The notes beneath the pieces are model-generated. The model ran no database searches, had not been told where the DNA came from, and saw only the letters and a program-made list of their open reading frames with translations. Source: Cladosporium halotolerans (lineage: Eukaryota). From it: 64,000 nucleotides of DNA. The position numbers were made by a program, and so were the translations under genes. The first letter of the stretch is position 1, and each line of letters begins with the position of its first letter. The stretch covers positions 558,001 through 622,000 of the forward strand of contig NW_027191456.1 of the NCBI RefSeq assembly GCF_011745625.1, read 5' to 3'. Positions 39,829 through 44,159 of the stretch are shown here, piece after piece.

Positions 39829-40034
39829 ATCGGTGTCGTGGAATCTGTTTGGCCGACTGCGTTGTTTTCAATACATAGTGCGTTGAGCTACGCATCTCCT
39901 CCTGGTCAACGTTCGTAGAGTTCACTGTAGCAGAGATAGCGATCCGGGATGACTGGATTGTTGGAATGCCATTGATTCAAAGGTAGAAACATCAAAACCC
40001 TTTTCCAAAATCAGGCATTAAATTCTGTCATTCA

Positions 40035-41682
40035 TCAATCCATGAGCCTCTTCATCATCAAAACCTCATGCTTCGTGACAAACACCCCGTTCCCCATAAC
40101 ACCTCCACCACAGCCCCCGTCATCCCCCTCCCCATCCAGCGCATCCATGAACTTCGCCACCTTCCCTCCCTCCCACTCCCCATCGTCATTCGTCCAAAAC
40201 ACCCGCTTGATACCCACGGCGTGCATATACGAGATGCAGCGATAGCACGGCCGCGACGCATGGATCGCCTTCCTCGGAACGCCGCTCTCAGCCTTATCCG
40301 GGATCGCCGGCCGTTCGCGCGGCGACGGGCTCCGGAGCTCGTCGTGCAGCGAGCCGGTGGCGCCGAGGCTGGAGGTGGAGGAGGAGAGGGAGGGCGGCGG
40401 GTCGGAGTCGGATTCGGAGGACGGGGGGTTGATCTCCGGCAGGGGCTTGGGTGGCTTCTTCTTTGGCTTGGTCTTCTGGGCGGCGTGGCCGCCTTTGTTC
40501 CAGCCGAGGCGGGTCACGTAGAGGTCTGCGCCGACGAGGCGCGGGTTTTTCCTGCGGTCGTTGGGCTCGGGGCGGGGTTTGGCGAGGTCGAGTTGGGAGA
40601 AGGCTGTGCTTTCTGAGGGTGGCTTTTCGGGGTATCTTGGTTTGTTGGACTGCGTATTGTTAGCTGGGTTCAGCTACACTTGCTGGCACGGACTTACGCC
40701 ACGGCGGTCTTTCTTAGCCTCCGACCTCTCTGGAGATGCTTTGCTGGCGGCAGCAGTGTTCGTGATAACATCATTAATCATACGGCGGTCGAAACCTCGC
40801 GTCGTGCGTTCCTCAATCGGCGATTCAGACGCAGAGCGCTGTTGCCCGTGTCGCCGAGAAGAACCGCGCTGTGTCTGTCTCCCAGACCGGACGTGATGAT
40901 GATGTTGATAGTCGTACTGACCGGCCTTGTGATGTTTCACGCTCTTCCTCGCACTCTGAGTGGCTTGTTTCACAAGACTCTTGACTGCGTGAAACGCCCT
41001 GTCCTCGTCCTCCCGCAGCCGCGCCGCCTGGTCCAGCGCATGGTGGACGTTGTTGTTGTAGTTGTGGTCGGGTGCCGCCACGTCGTTGAGGAGTGGCGTT
41101 CGCAGAACTGCGCTGTTGAACCTGCAGTTTGCCCCCTTGCCCGTGCGCAGCGGAGGAGGTGGTGTCGTCGAGGTTGTCGCAGATGCGCTCGACGTAGGTC
41201 TTCAGGACGTCGCGGCGCAGTCTCTCCTTCTTCTTGTCGCCGCGCGGAAGCTTCATGCACGGCTTCTCGCGCGAGGAAGTGCCGCAAGCCAAGGTTGAGG
41301 AGGTCGACAGAGCAGAGTGGATGGCCATCATTTCGGAGTGCATAGAGAGAGGAGTGTATGCCTGGGTACCGCGCCCACCGCCAACCTTCTCGAAAGCGAC
41401 AAAATCGTCGGAGTCCTGCTGCTGCTGCTCATCTTTCTGTTTCGATTTAGTCTCCTTGCGCTGCTTCAACTTCGCCTTCATATCTGCCAGGGCGGGTCCA
41501 TTGAGAGCGCTGTTTGCGACGCGGCCGTGCTTGAGAACTCCGCCGTCGAAACCAGGACGATAGTCGTTGTGACCCTGGCCAATGACCTTGCCGCCTCGAA
41601 CGATGATACAGCCATGGCGGTAGTGGAGGGGAGATTTGGCGGCCTGCTCGAGGCAAAGCGTGAGGTAATTGTCCGTCTTCAT
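40035..41682 (-). CDS. CMP/dCMP-type (cytidine deaminase-like) zinc-binding protein with halves in different frames
   Basis: N-half: HGCIIVRGGKVIGQGHN..SMHSEMMAI. C-half: LVGADLYVTRL..SRPCYRCISYMHAVGIKRVFWT. Canonical 48-nt intron 40697-40650. How the frames are joined is unresolved (see findings). Confidence 0.8.
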
Positions 41683-42142
41683 TGCGATTGTTTAGCGGGG
41701 TAGAATGGTGGGTTTGCCGGTGATAGCTTGGTCGAACGAATTGCAAGAGTCGGTCAATATGGGTAGTATGGTTCCGCGAATCGTCCAAGTGACTCTGCAG
41801 CGTCAAGCTATCGAGCGTTTCTCGAAGATGGTAGGTTGTCGATCTTGCAAGCCATGACAGTCGCGATGCGCGTAGTTGACATGTGAAGAAGCGGGACGAG
41901 ATTCAGGGTGCAGGTGTGCCGAGGAGTAATCATCATCCATCTCACAGCTGTCAGGCTGCTTTGGTCTATGTACTTCGAAGCATGACAAGGACGATGACAT
42001 TGTGTGAAACCAATGGTTAAAGGAGATCAAAGTTTCCATCATACAAGTCTATCATAATTACCATGAAAGTCATCCCAAATCGTCGTAATCATCGTTTCCT
42101 AGCGTCCTGTTCCACCTTATTATTCCTGTGACCAAATCTCGA

Positions 42143-43645
42143 TTACTGCGGAACGCCTCTGATGCCCAACCCAATAGCCTCGCCAGTCCTGGCTCGCTTG
42201 GCCGGCGGCTCGTCCTCACCAGCCCGCACGACATTAGCCTTCCTCACCGCGCCGAACAGCTTGCCTTGCCGCAAGTTGCTGCCACTGCGCGGCGCGGGTC
42301 TCACATTCTGCGCATACTGGTCGTAAGAAGGCTGGTTGAGGCGCTCAGGATTCGCCCTGAGCATCTGGGAAGCAGTCAGCGAGGCTTGCGGCTCGTCAAT
42401 CTCGTTTGGCTCGAGGATGTCGGTCTCAGCTTCGCTGTCGTTGTCGTCGTGGTCGGAGGCGGAGACTGTGCCGTCAGAGGCCAGCGGCTGTGATCGCTTC
42501 ACGGGCAGCGTGCGCTGGCTGTAAATGTCTGGTGTGCGCAAGTTGCTTGTGCGCTGAACTGGCGCAGTCGAAGGCATCGCAAGCTGGTGATGCCCGCCCT
42601 GAGGTGTTTCAAAGAGCGGCGGCTGCTTGCGCGAGCGGTGAGGCGTGACGGGCAGGCTGATGTTGCGAGAGTGGCCTTTCTTGCCTGCGCCTCTGCTGCC
42701 ATATGATTTGCCGGCGCCCGCTTCTTGGCTGGCCATCTCAGATGCTTGAAGGAGCGCAGCAAAAGGCTGAGGCTGGTCGTGGCTGACCATTTGAGGGCGT
42801 CTTGGGGTGCTGTAGACAGAGCGTGGCGTGCCGTCAAGGTGTCGACCAAGACTTGCACTGCGAGCACGGTTTTGGTCATCGCGATGCTTCCTAATGCGGT
42901 CGCGCATCATAAGCACCTTGTCGGAGAGGCCGGCGATTTCAGTGTCTTGACGGAAGATCACCTTTTCTTGCTGGCGATGCTCGGCCTCTAGGAAGCGGTT
43001 GTTTTCTTGGAGGTGCTGGATCTCGCGACACATGCGCTGATAAAGATCCTTCTGTACGGGAATAGTGCCGTCCTGCATAGGCGATGATTGCAGGGGCGAG
43101 ACGGCAGCCTTGGCCTGTTCTGCGACATGGATGACATCGTTCTCGCACTGCACCATGCGAGCCTCGACTGCCATGCGCTCAATGGCAGCTGCGCTTTCCT
43201 GAGCCAACATCTGGTACTGCAGTCTATGGTGGGCAGCGGACATCTTGGCTTCCTGGTATGCGGCTTGGAGTTCGGCGACCTTGGATCGCAGCTCGTCGGC
43301 GGATGCGCTTGCGATCTGATCGCTGCTCATTGTGCGCGCATAACCTCCGACGGTACGAGTGTTGCTTTCCTGGCTCAATGTGTCGACGGTCGGCGGAGGG
43401 GTCGAGACATGCGAGCACGACGGGGTCGAAGCGTGCGATTTGGCGCGGCCATTGGCCGGCACTTGTGCTGACGGCGGAGGCGTCATGCTGGCCGTCGCGT
43501 CCTCGACGCGATCGGCCTGTTCCTTTGCGACAGTCTCGGTGGTGTCGACGGGTATGTTGGCATGCGGCGGCTGCGGCGTGACGGGCACGCTGGTCTGGGT
43601 CTGCGGTATGAGACCGTCTAGTACGTCATTTGCGTGGGCGTCCAT
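42143..43645 (-). CDS. Conserved fungal coiled-coil / low-complexity protein of unknown function
   Basis: ATG 43645. Coiled-coil core ELQAAYQEAKMSAAHHRLQYQMLAQESAAAIERMAVE, FAALLQAS, many TP/SP sites, C-terminal IGLGI. Confidence 0.8.
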   Translation of the reverse strand: MDAHANDVLDGLIPQTQTSVPVTPQPPHANIPVDTTETVAKEQADRVEDATASMTPPPSAQVPANGRAKSHASTPSCSHVSTPPPTVDTLSQESNTRTVGGYARTMSSDQIASASADELRSKVAELQAAYQEAKMSAAHHRLQYQMLAQESAAAIERMAVEARMVQCENDVIHVAEQAKAAVSPLQSSPMQDGTIPVQKDLYQRMCREIQHLQENNRFLEAEHRQQEKVIFRQDTEIAGLSDKVLMMRDRIRKHRDDQNRARSASLGRHLDGTPRSVYSTPRRPQMVSHDQPQPFAALLQASEMASQEAGAGKSYGSRGAGKKGHSRNISLPVTPHRSRKQPPLFETPQGGHHQLAMPSTAPVQRTSNLRTPDIYSQRTLPVKRSQPLASDGTVSASDHDDNDSEAETDILEPNEIDEPQASLTASQMLRANPERLNQPSYDQYAQNVRPAPRSGSNLRQGKLFGAVRKANVVRAGEDEPPAKRARTGEAIGLGIRGVPQ

Positions 43646-44159
43646 TTGGGTATGCGCGCGTGGTCGCGTGAAGGCGGCGATGGCAGCGGTGCGGTTTGCG
43701 ACAATGCGCGACAAGTGTGTATGGCGGTAGAGGTGTGGGTGAGGGTGGTCGAAGGGCGCAGAGGCGGCGCGGGCGGCGAGCGTTGTCTGAAGAGGGCCCG
43801 CCCTCCAGTGTGGCCGGGGCGGATGGAGACGACGAGGGTCAGCGGTGGGCGGAGAGGCTGGAGGACGCGGCTTGGGCGTTTGTTTGGCCCGCGCTAGAGC
43901 TGCAGGCACTTCCGGGAAGGCGGCTGCGCCCGGCCCGTCGAACCTTCCTGCTGGCCCGGCGACGACGACGACTCGCGCTGTCTGTGCAGGGGGCAGCGAG
44001 ACTCAAGGTAGGCGGCGGCTGCCGAGGGCGACGGACGTCACGCTGGCTGAGGATGGTACCTGGATGTCGCAGCATTGGATCGCCCAGCTCGACCTCTGCC
44101 CGTGCGGACTGTGACGAGACCCCGGTGTCTGTCTGTGCGTGCAGCACGCCTGGTGAAAC

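Follow-up and report, generated by a model that had tools for sequence, protein, structure and literature searches.

In Cladosporium halotolerans, the two zinc-binding halves of a predicted deaminase are encoded in different reading frames, and the whole enzyme, of about 532 amino acids, is probably made by programmed +1 ribosomal frameshifting near a GUU_CAA sequence; ribosomes that do not shift would make a short form of 285 amino acids. The gene lies on the minus strand of a 64,000-nt stretch of DNA (assembly GCF_011745625.1, contig NW_027191456.1, positions 558,001-622,000), which is referred to here as the window, and all coordinates below are window positions.

The first open reading frame (ORF1, frame 0; 40825..41682, minus strand) runs from an ATG at 41682 through 285 codons to a TGA stop at 40827-40825. 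It contains the N-terminal half of the deaminase fold (helix 1, strands 1-2 and the HSE helix), a further helix and a 107-residue tail; the HSE motif (HxE, zinc binding and catalysis) is CAC TCC GAA at 41340-41332, minus strand. ORF1 can be aligned with residues 1-185 of a Cladosporium fusiforme protein (P0001) at 78% identity (148/190), and a near-identical raw ORF (P0086) is present on 13 contigs. The second half (ORF2) is in the +1 frame, overlaps ORF1 and has no start of its own, and both ORFs are needed for one protein. In the window the +1 frame is stop-free from 41201 to 40677. A +1-frame TGA (41202..41204, minus strand) forms the 5' limit of the +1 ORF (40674..41201) in this lineage, and the shift must therefore occur 3' of it. 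Upstream of the near-invariant 21-nt block described below, the +1 frame is open for just 78 nt in the window and for 177-200 nt in most relatives. The part of ORF2 that precedes the intron (40698..41117, minus strand) has 140 codons counted from the AAC at 41117 and is 52% identical (55/106) to P0001 residues 194-297. Next come a phase-0 spliceosomal intron of 48 nt (40650..40697, minus strand; GTAAGT...GCTAAC...CAG), seen in a transcript contig, and the last exon (40035..40649, minus strand; 204 codons plus a stop), which is 61% identical (129/211) to P0001 residues 299-502. This exon encodes strand 3 (GADLYVTRLG), the PCYRC motif in the +1 frame (40250-40236, minus strand), which supplies two Cys zinc ligands, and the C-terminal strands and helix. 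The positions given in the first-pass annotation for the ATG, HSE, frame-0 stop, +1 ORF, intron, PCYRC, a G5 run and an inverted repeat all match the sequence.

CDA-fold deaminases need HxE and PCxxC within one fold. The H, S and E of the HSE motif are invariant in alignments A2 (17 sequences) and A4 (26 sequences), P433, C434 and C437 of PCxxC are invariant in A2, and across classes there is little or no variation in the PCYRC motif and the C-terminal strands. The same pair of motifs occurs in the PF00383 family, dCMP deaminase, cytidine deaminase, TadA/ADAT2 and RibD. The PF00383 profile gives the ORF1 fragment of the window 23.7 bits, as against a gathering cutoff of 25 bits, and scores above the cutoff in all four full-length homologues (26.6-32.8 bits); the match is limited to profile positions 5-83 because an insert separates PCxxC from the rest. 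An AF2 model of the homologue P0001 has a core pLDDT of 73-89 and a three-layer alpha/beta/alpha deaminase fold. In a VIA-align comparison with this model (residues 1 to ~472), the best 24 rows are all CDA-fold deaminases with Z values of 5.8-8.3, a range in which scores under 8 may be non-specific; superpositions of the predicted core were obtained with 3dmo_A (Z 8.3, 113 residues), 2w4l_A (Z 8.0) and 4p9c_A (Z 7.6), and with TadA and RibD. Unlike known CDA-fold deaminases, the protein has ~200 disordered residues between the HxE helix and strand 3, and ~80 before PCxxC. Foldseek returned no match in the PDB at E<=0.001, a sequence search of solved chains gave none at E<=0.01, and sequence searches found no characterised relative. 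On the motifs and the model, the gene is a member of a CDA-fold zinc deaminase family with named members found in four classes of filamentous ascomycetes, and the fold, as modelled, needs both the HSE half and the PCYRC half.

The frame break is present in both DNA and RNA. A DNA-like contig of 66.6 kb (X1) is identical to the window over 40000-41750. A transcript contig from the same organism (X2; 1399 nt, depth 60.8) joins 40649 to 40698, omitting 48 nt whose ends are CT..AC on the plus strand; it is otherwise colinear over 40698-41750, with this intron as its sole joint and with no indel. X2 is labelled ‘?’ in the run listing, and we call it RNA because of its intron-less joint and the short contigs. 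From another study, an RNA-labelled metatranscriptome run (X16) has a 249-nt contig that covers 41045-41293 with two mismatches and no gap; runs X16 and X17 span parts of the gene. The RNA basis thus consists of assembled contigs, which lose rare variants, from one species plus one short metatranscriptome contig. The spliced transcript confirms the 48-nt in-phase intron that had been predicted from the DNA and has no second intron that would restore the frame in the overlap, and a 1-nt assembly error is excluded by the DNA-like, transcript and metatranscriptome contigs alike. In the contigs of this one species, the break persists in the mature mRNA.

Candidate introns in the overlap were also considered, with GT..AG pairs listed by hand. 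The lone in-phase pair (41121-41028, 94 nt) has a poor donor, GTTCAA, would remove a conserved +1 peptide and is unused in the transcript contig. A 40-nt mini-intron suggested by the family consensus (GTTCAAG...CTCAACCAG) is absent from the window, which has GAC for CAG, and its bases show +1 codon periodicity, against an intron reading.

The break is shared by relatives of the gene. The set comprises 73 sequences (72 loci plus the window), of which 67 contain the N-terminal part and two of these end before the site. The motif [RKT]F[KN]S[AG][VID]L..H[LVI][ND] is found in the +1 frame in 62 of the 67 and in another frame in none; three further sequences have a diverged motif, also in +1 when assigned by eye. 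The +1 arrangement is therefore present in 65/65 related metagenome loci that cover the site, and a homologue with a single continuous ORF, which would have told against the first-pass reading, was not among them. When tblastn gave HSPs for both the N-terminal and the middle parts, the step between them was +1 (14/14 loci, and the window), and 10 of 11 raw ORF calls terminate at the same frame-0 stop. The nearest named relatives of these loci are in Cladosporium, Teratosphaeriaceae, Mycosphaerellaceae, Pleosporales, Sordariales and Lecanoromycetes; Eurotiomycetes and Hypocreales yielded no named member. Judged from these alignments, the frame break is conserved among relatives and ancient.

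The position of the switch can be approached through codon usage and substitution patterns. In 20-codon windows, frame-0 GC3 is 0.85-1.00 at starts 41292-41187 and 0.25-0.35 at 41112-41052, and GC3 in the +1 frame is 0.75-0.95 at starts 41172-41037, which bears out an earlier hand-counted change of codon bias from frame 0 to +1. Per-column entropy over 38 non-redundant site sequences, together with alignment A3, identifies a near-invariant block of 21 nt, the window copy of which is at 41101..41121 on the minus strand. Its family consensus, GTTCAAGAGTG[C/G][G/C]G[T/A]TTTGAA, translates as V-Q-E-C-G-F-E (frame 0) or F-K-S-A-V-L-K (+1); six positions of the window copy depart from it, all conservatively or synonymously in +1, so that N-S-A-V-L-R is kept. 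Frame-0 codon periodicity gives way to +1 periodicity at this block, and the +1 periodicity continues past it. The two frame-0 codons directly before the block have the highest third-position variability. Codon phase thus indicates that translation uses frame 0 as far as the block and includes the +1 frame from there on.

Within the block, the candidate shift heptamer inferred from the codon-phase data is GTT CAA C (41115..41121, minus strand; GUU_CAA_G in the family). Where the codon at 41121-41119 varies (GTC, GTG, GGT or GGC), the change is synonymous or to Gly in frame 0 and turns F into S, C, V or A in +1, while the next +1 codon varies only at its third base (AAG, AAC or AAA). The assignment of this site relies on very few substitutions, and some signals conflict: two changes between L011 and L012 upstream of the block are synonymous in +1 and non-synonymous in frame 0, and frame-0 synonymous constraint drops already 60-180 nt upstream of the block. 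A tRNA-Val would re-pair poorly at UUC, which counts against a slip at GUU_CAA.

The first-pass annotation had instead placed the slip on the G5 run (41132..41136, minus strand), where GGG could re-pair in +1. This part of the proposal is not sustained: in A3 the run is confined to the window and L008, the closest relative of the window, and lies outside the conserved feature, and codon phase puts the switch ~12-20 nt further 3', at GTT CAA (41121-41116). Slippage on the run, whether transcriptional or ribosomal, was rejected because the run is not conserved. The accompanying hairpin (41106..41129, minus strand), in which AACTGC (41129-41124) and GCAGTT (41111-41106) would form six base pairs around the candidate shift site, is doubtful. 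It is weak and gains no covariation support: the equivalent 8-bp helix is 75.0% paired in 39 sequences versus 72.3% in shuffles (5/500 shuffles as high), two pairs have changes on both sides, and RNAalifold on the 39 sequences predicts no consensus pairs. Nor do known +1 sites (CUU_AGG_C, CUU_AGU_U, GCG_AGU_U) or an in-frame stop occur in 41201-41101. GUU_CAA_G matches no known +1 site and no stop-codon A site, and would be a new site. CAA accounts for 27-33% of Gln codons; a hungry-codon mechanism was rejected, CAA and GTT being minor rather than rare codons.

The mechanism that we favour would work as follows. One mRNA would carry two overlapping frames of a single gene, and translation would start at the ATG at 41682 and cover the HSE half in frame 0. 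On reaching the 21-nt block (41121-41101), or just ahead of it, a fraction of ribosomes would shift to +1, most likely at GUU_CAA (41121-41116), giving ...K-L-Q-V followed by N-S-A-V-L-R...; at GTT CAA C, Val would be decoded in frame 0, the C skipped, and Asn (Lys in relatives) decoded in +1. Shifted ribosomes would continue through a long disordered insert, the junction left by the 48-nt intron and the PCYRC half, yielding the complete enzyme of about 532 amino acids. Unshifted ribosomes would read 98 more frame-0 codons to the conserved ...L-C-V stop, 297 nt from the candidate shift site, and the resulting 285-residue product would be without half of the fold. We infer that the joining step is ribosomal, and we infer likewise the exact site, the accumulation of two proteins and any regulatory role, such as the on/off switch proposed in the first-pass annotation.

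The same bases in the overlap (40828..41114, minus strand) would thus serve as the tail of the frame-0 short product and, in +1, as the disordered insert of the long product. A precedent for such an arrangement is HIV, whose overlap is dual-coded. Stop avoidance, the substitution pattern and a conserved tail alignment (A4) all bear on this region. After the switch, frame 0 is open for a median of 255 nt, versus 51 nt when the +1 codons are shuffled, with p<=0.05 in 29/31 loci. With shuffling limited to the stretch in which frame 0 is open, the expectation is about 5.0 frame-0 stops, and none is seen (p<=0.05 in 30/30 loci); once the first frame-0 stop is passed, stops occur at 5.8 per 100 codons. 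The openness of both frames that had been noticed in the window thus extends beyond chance. The reverse test, +1 openness given the frame-0 codons, is weaker (p<=0.05 in 16/30 loci). Openness of +1 upstream of the switch (median 183 nt, versus ~57 nt shuffled) is treated as weak, because p<=0.05 was obtained in only 13/37 loci and the region is inherited, conserved frame-0 sequence.

Substitutions lead to the same place. Synonymous differences were counted per identical-residue codon in eight independent pairs. In the overlap there are 49/478 when the sequence is read in +1 and 46/485 when it is read in frame 0, as compared with 191/928 in the upstream frame-0-only region and 108/378 in the downstream +1-only region (Fisher tests of overlap versus flanks, p = 7e-12 to 7e-7). 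Synonymous variation is therefore halved in both overlap frames, and substitutions there are flat across codon positions, whereas in the downstream +1 region the differences at codon positions 1/2/3 are 0.216/0.192/0.333, as in ordinary coding sequence. ORF1 ends in CTC TGC GTC TGA (L-C-V-stop; 40825..40836, minus strand), where the same bases read S-A-S-E in +1. A homologous frame-0 stop follows ..[IVLM]-C-[VA] in most of 36 loci, and the +1 third positions at this end are nearly fixed (T in 29/36, G in 33/36). The frame-0 tail can be aligned across orders (A4) and keeps the C-V-stop end; residues 179-285, which make up this tail in the short form, are predicted to be disordered, with no new fold. 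Together, these data indicate that the overlap is under constraint in both frames and is truly dual-coded. The first-pass annotation had offered a +1 frameshift or a dual-coded region; with constraint in both overlap frames, both are supported, and they are not alternatives. An antisense gene was rejected as the source of the constraint: a plus-strand frame at 40617-41345 is open in the window and not generally in relatives, the three antisense frames being stop-free in 21, 4 and 1 of 36 loci.

Other ways of joining the two halves should be weighed against ribosomal frameshifting. The best surviving one, which we nevertheless consider unlikely, is rare or conditional RNA processing, in which 3n+1 nt would be lost, either within the block or upstream of it, perhaps through alternative or unconventional splicing; a dominant unspliced mRNA would then give the short form and a rare isoform the full enzyme. 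Contigs report the dominant form only, and dual coding would be expected under alternative splicing too. In the window, a CTGCAG that immediately precedes the block is reminiscent of an Ire1-type loop. Even so, X2 has no joint other than the 48-nt intron, and in many loci the block follows the conserved frame-0 YVE.VC codons at a distance of only ~30-40 nt, too short for an intron. There is no position-conserved GT..AG (an AG at relative positions 0-1 occurs in ~22/38 sequences), the CTGCAG bases are variable, and use of the one in-phase pair in the window would delete conserved +1 peptide.

Less probable still is a split deaminase, with the halves made separately and ORF2 expressed from an internal transcript start or by non-AUG or internal initiation. 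Such a protein would be consistent with the conservation of both ORFs, both of which are required for one fold, and with the conserved tail of the short ORF1 product. Against it, the +1 ORF has no ATG before its conserved peptides (in the window, the first +1 Met is in ...DRRMINDV, far downstream), a conserved near-cognate start is not visible in A3, both ORFs are on one transcript contig, and several frame-0 ATGs lie in the 560 nt that a scanning ribosome would need to cross.

Slightly lower again, and decidedly improbable, we place bypassing, in which peptidyl-tRNA-Val leaves the GUU at 41121-41119, lands on the GUU at 41108-41106, 13 nt downstream, and resumes in +1. Both GTT triplets are present in the window and most relatives, 13 is 3n+1, and the weak hairpin encloses the take-off codon, but the landing triplet is GAT or another triplet in 11/38 sequences (relative position 16 is T in 27/38), and the bases to be skipped change +1-synonymously in the window lineage, which argues that they are translated.

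That ORF1 alone is expressed, the +1 region and PCYRC exon being an untranslated relic, is very hard to credit given the ordinary coding periodicity of the downstream +1 region, the near-invariance of PCYRC and the C-terminal strands across classes, and the removal of the intron in phase. An indel introduced in sequencing or assembly, or a gene that has only lately become a pseudogene in this strain, is the commonest cause of apparent frame breaks, and the G5 homopolymer is nearby, but the chance that it applies here is negligible: no indel is present in three independent contigs (two are transcript-like or come from RNA libraries), the same break is in every covering locus, nearly all raw ORF calls share the frame-0 stop, both frames are under purifying selection, and the predictions of this explanation are not borne out.

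Programmed frameshifting, the reading that we prefer, can be compared with known systems. Chromosomal +1 genes of budding yeast include OAZ1, ABP140, EST3 and YFS1/YPL034W (PMC12719033, PMC5009743), and a fourth case in these yeasts was reported only in 2025 (PMC12719033). Like these, the present gene is cellular, its full product would need a +1 shift, its ORF2 is startless and its break is conserved over a large fungal clade, here Pezizomycotina rather than budding yeasts. Conserved sequence directly 3' of the presumed shift site is also reminiscent of the 3' stimulators of Ty3 (14 nt) and EST3 (27 nt) (PMC5009743). Unlike in the yeast genes, the heptamers CUU_AGG_C, CUU_AGU_U and GCG_UGA_C are absent, and the A site holds neither a rare nor a stop codon. 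In the yeast genes, frame 0 closes a few codons further on and conservation does not extend to the short product, whereas here frame 0 continues for ~70-125 codons under selection; the distant frame-0 stop differs from those of antizyme, EST3 and ABP140. Closer in taxonomy is PaYIP3 of Podospora anserina (PMC3777964), where a conserved recoding event in filamentous ascomycetes likewise gives short and long forms from one mRNA, and which is conserved across Pezizomycotina (PMC3777964, PMC5009743). PaYIP3 is an unrelated gene, for a Rab-GDI displacement factor, with a mostly -1 shift at U_UUU_UCC and a 3' pseudoknot, and its shift comes late in an ORF that is both complete and conserved, whereas here a catalytic domain is interrupted midway.

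The long overlap is most like those of gag-pol genes (Ty1, Ty3, HIV-1; PMC5009743): the shift site is at the 5' end, both frames are translated (here, probably so) and synonymous variation in the overlap is suppressed. The differences are that the present gene is a cellular and putatively single-copy enzyme gene rather than a mobile element, and that each of its frames supplies half of a single fold, not a distinct protein with a role of its own. The word ‘deaminase’ does not occur in the available text of PMC12719033, and the sole deaminase case in that of PMC5009743 is an incidental -1 event in Bacillus. No description of a frameshift in a fungal deaminase was found by full-text searches of the literature and term searches of PMC5009743, PMC12719033 and PMC3531167, supplements excluded.

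The frame break also explains why public models of this deaminase family disagree. Among 120 public models that have both motifs, 22 read the block in +1 and 9 in frame 0, and the remaining 89 match neither reading under the patterns used. These models bridge the break incompatibly, with invented introns, or stop at it. Probably, then, hundreds of annotations in this family are wrong in the middle third.

A fuller statement, on which we are evenly divided, is that the programmed +1 frameshift is of ancient origin, shared by Dothideomycetes, Sordariomycetes, Lecanoromycetes and probably Leotiomycetes, with a new GUU_CAA_G signal and 14 conserved 3' bases, a zinc site split between frames and two conserved proteins over an overlap of ~300 nt. 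Output of a deaminase of nucleic acids or nucleotides, potentially a mutagenic one, would then be limited to a set fraction of that of the short form, which is catalytically incomplete. Few chromosomal frameshift genes are conserved, and this one would add a case that spans several classes of filamentous fungi. If the interpretation is true, the shift signal is unlike the known ones and would be a new handle on +1 programming. Among the cases compared here, a long overlap selected in both frames and a catalytic domain cut by the shift are unusual for a cellular gene. The finding points to an uncharacterised family of deaminases whose dosage appears to be set at translation.

The deaminase gene lies on the minus strand and is divided between two reading frames. 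Its frame-0 part (ORF1) runs from the ATG at 41682 to the TGA at 40827-40825 (285 codons) and carries the HSE motif (41340-41332). No stop interrupts the +1 frame between 41201 and 40677, and this frame is linked in phase, through a 48-nt intron (GTAAGT..GCTAAC..CAG, 40697-40650), to the last exon, which contains the PCYRC motif (40250-40236) and ends at 40035. The coordinates of this gene in the first-pass annotation are all correct when checked against the sequence. In 20-codon windows, GC3 in frame 0 is 0.85-1.00 until ~41187 and 0.25-0.35 by 41112-41052; across the same stretch, GC3 in the +1 frame climbs to 0.75-0.95. The upstream neighbour, also on the minus strand, is a 619-codon open frame (42143-44002) with low-complexity stretches rich in Ala, Pro, Gln and Ser.

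Part of the stretch is present in 20 of 24 public sequencing runs, four of which are compared here. Run X1, which may be the window's own source, has a 66.6-kb contig identical across 40000-41750. Run X2, from the same organism, is treated as a transcriptome because its contigs are short (≤7.5 kb, 20.6 Mb in total) and one of them is intron-less. In its 1399-nt contig (depth 60.8), 40649 is joined to 40698, with exactly the 48-nt intron missing, and past this joint the contig is colinear beyond 41750, free of further joints, insertions or deletions. X16, an RNA-labelled metatranscriptome from a separate study, provides a 249-nt contig that aligns ungapped to 41045-41293 with two mismatches, and X17 covers 40865-41015 and 41467-41617. 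The first-pass annotation had allowed for a 1-nt assembly error or an ordinary frame-restoring intron; no indel is found in the X1, X2 or X16 contigs, and the X2 transcript contig removes the 48-nt intron only. The frame break is neither an artefact nor an unseen intron. Since the X2 and X16 contigs run through without an indel, the dominant mature mRNA retains the break, as judged from contigs, which can miss rare isoforms. A rare or conditional RNA isoform, though the most probable of the alternatives, is in our view unlikely.

Judging from related sequences, the break is also not private to this genome. A scan of metagenome contigs gives 72 loci, and the N-terminal part is present in 67 of 73 sequences (the loci plus the window). 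The motif [RKT]F[KN]S[AG][VID]L..H[LVI][ND] occurs in the +1 frame in 62 of these 67 and never in the other frames; two terminate before the site, and the remaining three (L013, L052 and L055) have a diverged motif, likewise in +1. The break suspected from one genome is found in all 65 sequences that cover the site, always as +1. By best named match, the loci resemble Cladosporium, Friedmanniomyces, Hortaea, Elasticomyces, Meristemomyces and Baudoinia, as well as Sphaerulina (L022, 96%), Pleosporales (L054, 89% to Alternaria), Sordariales (L010, L013 and L067, 56-74% to Immersiella) and Lecanoromycetes (L049, 68% to Pleopsidium). The family also occurs in Leotiomycetes, Xylariales and Diaporthales, as annotated protein models only. 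Ten of eleven raw ORF calls from other assemblies cover the HSE half and stay in frame 0 until a ...C-V or ...C-A end; one of them, P0086 (285 aa, on 13 contigs), is almost identical to ORF1. The one call without the C-V tail, P0106 (339 aa), has unrelated sequence after the near-invariant block described below and is possibly from a chimeric contig. In the closest relative, L008, the last exon (L008:3136-3654) is inverted, on the opposite strand of the contig, probably by misassembly or rearrangement. The near-identical Sordariales-like loci L010 and L067 differ in N-to-C match spacing (906 versus 907 nt) and so in C-terminal frame, likely a matter of intron length or error.

ORF1 scores 23.7 bits against PF00383, slightly below the cutoff of 25 bits, which all four full-length homologues pass (26.6-32.8 bits). 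A Cladosporium fusiforme protein (P0001, 504 aa) matches the three gene pieces in order: frame 0 at residues 1-185 (148/190 identical), the +1 frame at 194-297 (55/106) and the last exon at 299-502 (129/211). Its AlphaFold model, built from an alignment of 17 sequences, is confident for a core of residues 1-40, 113-127, 330-346 and 430-470 and disordered at 170-322. In an exhaustive structural comparison with this model, CDA-fold deaminases are the top 24 matches (Z 5.8-8.3); all 24 align across residues 1 to ~472, so that in the model a single fold is assembled from pieces of both reading frames. A sequence search of solved structures gave no matches, and Foldseek nothing at E ≤ 0.001. Production of the two halves as separate polypeptides seems quite improbable. 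Six Pleosporales models (P0066, P0070, P0073, P0079, P0082 and P0108; 840-880 aa) join the deaminase to a PF10282 lactonase/YbhE-like domain, which may be an adjacent gene merged by the annotator.

To locate the switch, 38 non-redundant site sequences were anchored on the motif (rel 0 = 41123). The third base is the most variable in the two frame-0 codons preceding rel 2, rel 2-22 (the block, 41121-41101) hardly vary at any codon position, and from rel 23 on variation tracks the +1 codons. In the block consensus, GTTCAAGAGTG[C/G][G/C]G[T/A]TTTGAA, GTT changes only to GTC, GTG, GGT or GGC: in frame 0 these variants keep Val or give Gly, whereas in +1 they replace F by S, C, V or A. The +1 codon that follows takes the forms AAG, AAC and AAA, its variation lying at the third base. 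The window's six differences from the consensus are all silent or conservative in +1, not in frame 0. From these few substitutions we infer a switch at GTT/C/AAC as the simplest reading: Val GTT (41121-41119) would be read in frame 0, C at 41118 skipped and AAC (41117-41115) read in +1. The slip site first proposed, a G5 run at 41136-41132, exists in the window and L008 only. Hopping between two GTT triplets is a still more doubtful account than separate halves. At rel 19-21, nearly all loci (L001-L070) carry a TGA that falls in the third frame (-1 with respect to frame 0), whereas the window's own bases differ there (41101-41104 region); this TGA could be a trap for -1 slips or a by-product of two coding frames.

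Frame 0 stays open 3' of the block for a median of 255 nt, versus 51 nt with shuffled +1 codons (p ≤ 0.05 in 29/31 loci); the third frame closes after 18 nt. Shuffling within the open stretch, which by definition ends at the first frame-0 stop, predicts ~5.0 stops where none is seen (p ≤ 0.05 in 30/30 loci), and beyond that point stops occur in frame 0 at 5.8 per 100 codons. The reverse test, of +1 openness, is weaker (p ≤ 0.05 in 16/30 loci). Eight independent pairs were compared by codon position. Counted in the +1 frame, the overlap differs by 0.106/0.122/0.137 at positions 1/2/3 and the stretch beyond it by 0.216/0.192/0.333; the upstream part that codes in frame 0 alone, counted in that frame, differs by 0.061/0.045/0.214. 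Where the residue is identical, codons in the overlap show 49/478 synonymous differences read in +1 and 46/485 read in frame 0, against 191/928 in the upstream flank and 108/378 in the downstream one (Fisher p 7e-12 to 7e-7). The frame-0 tails, predicted to be disordered, align across orders (...GVS...ET...E-E-E...R-P-x-W-T-T-x-T...A-T..[IV]-C-V) and end at a homologous place, on bases reading S-A-S-K in +1. These comparisons indicate that the overlap is dual-coded. That ORF2 (the +1 part and the last exon) is a relic is very improbable, and an artefact or pseudogene is a negligible prospect. An antisense stop-free frame of 242 codons (40617-41345, plus strand) spans the entire overlap; an antisense gene was rejected as the source of constraint because, of the three such frames, the best is open in just 21 of 36 loci and the others in 4 and 1; this one is probably a by-product of composition. 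In one locus of 36, L063, the +1 frame is interrupted within the overlap by a stop ~290 nt past the site (..YE*QYD..); sequencing error, an intron or decay of this copy could each account for it.

Public gene models treat this region inconsistently. Among 120 with both motifs, the block is read in +1 by 22 and in frame 0 by 9; 89 fit neither reading under the patterns used, many being bridged by a predicted intron. Family annotations (P0001-P0160) cross the break in mutually incompatible ways (for example P0042, P0013, P0033 and P0019/P0026, the last with a 13-nt gap), and many omit conserved codons through a predicted intron. Many of these annotations probably contain errors in the middle portion.

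For the mechanism, we lean towards +1 ribosomal frameshifting, indistinguishable here from a -2 shift. Several observations count against it: CAA is minor rather than rare among Gln codons (27-33%), the candidate heptamer matches none of the known +1 sites compared, and no conserved RNA structure was found at the site. Frame-0 synonymous variation also drops (0.42, 0.27, 0.17, 0.13) toward the block over 240 nt upstream, in a region 60-240 nt from it (~41360-41150 in the window, and in related loci) where the window's frame-0 codons are nearly all G- or C-ending. Possible causes of this drop are a 5' stimulator, optimised codons or, in some lineages, a shift that takes place earlier.

The conserved +1 shifts known from cellular genes of fungi are those of OAZ1, ABP140, EST3 and YFS1 (PMC12719033, PMC5009743); in Pezizomycotina, PaYIP3 shifts mostly -1 (PMC3777964). 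None of the five is a deaminase or has the GTT/CAA site, and the yeast +1 genes have a frame-0 stop close after the shift site, unlike this gene. A literature search (full text and in-paper terms) found no description of a fungal deaminase frameshift. The comparative and RNA evidence for a conserved frame break is strong, and a ribosomal step joining the halves is a fairly probable candidate. Shifted ribosomes would then produce the full enzyme of ~532 aa (188 + 140 + 204 codons) and unshifted ones a 285-aa short form, an arrangement resembling gag-pol in that the shift site lies at the 5' end of the overlap and both products would be important.
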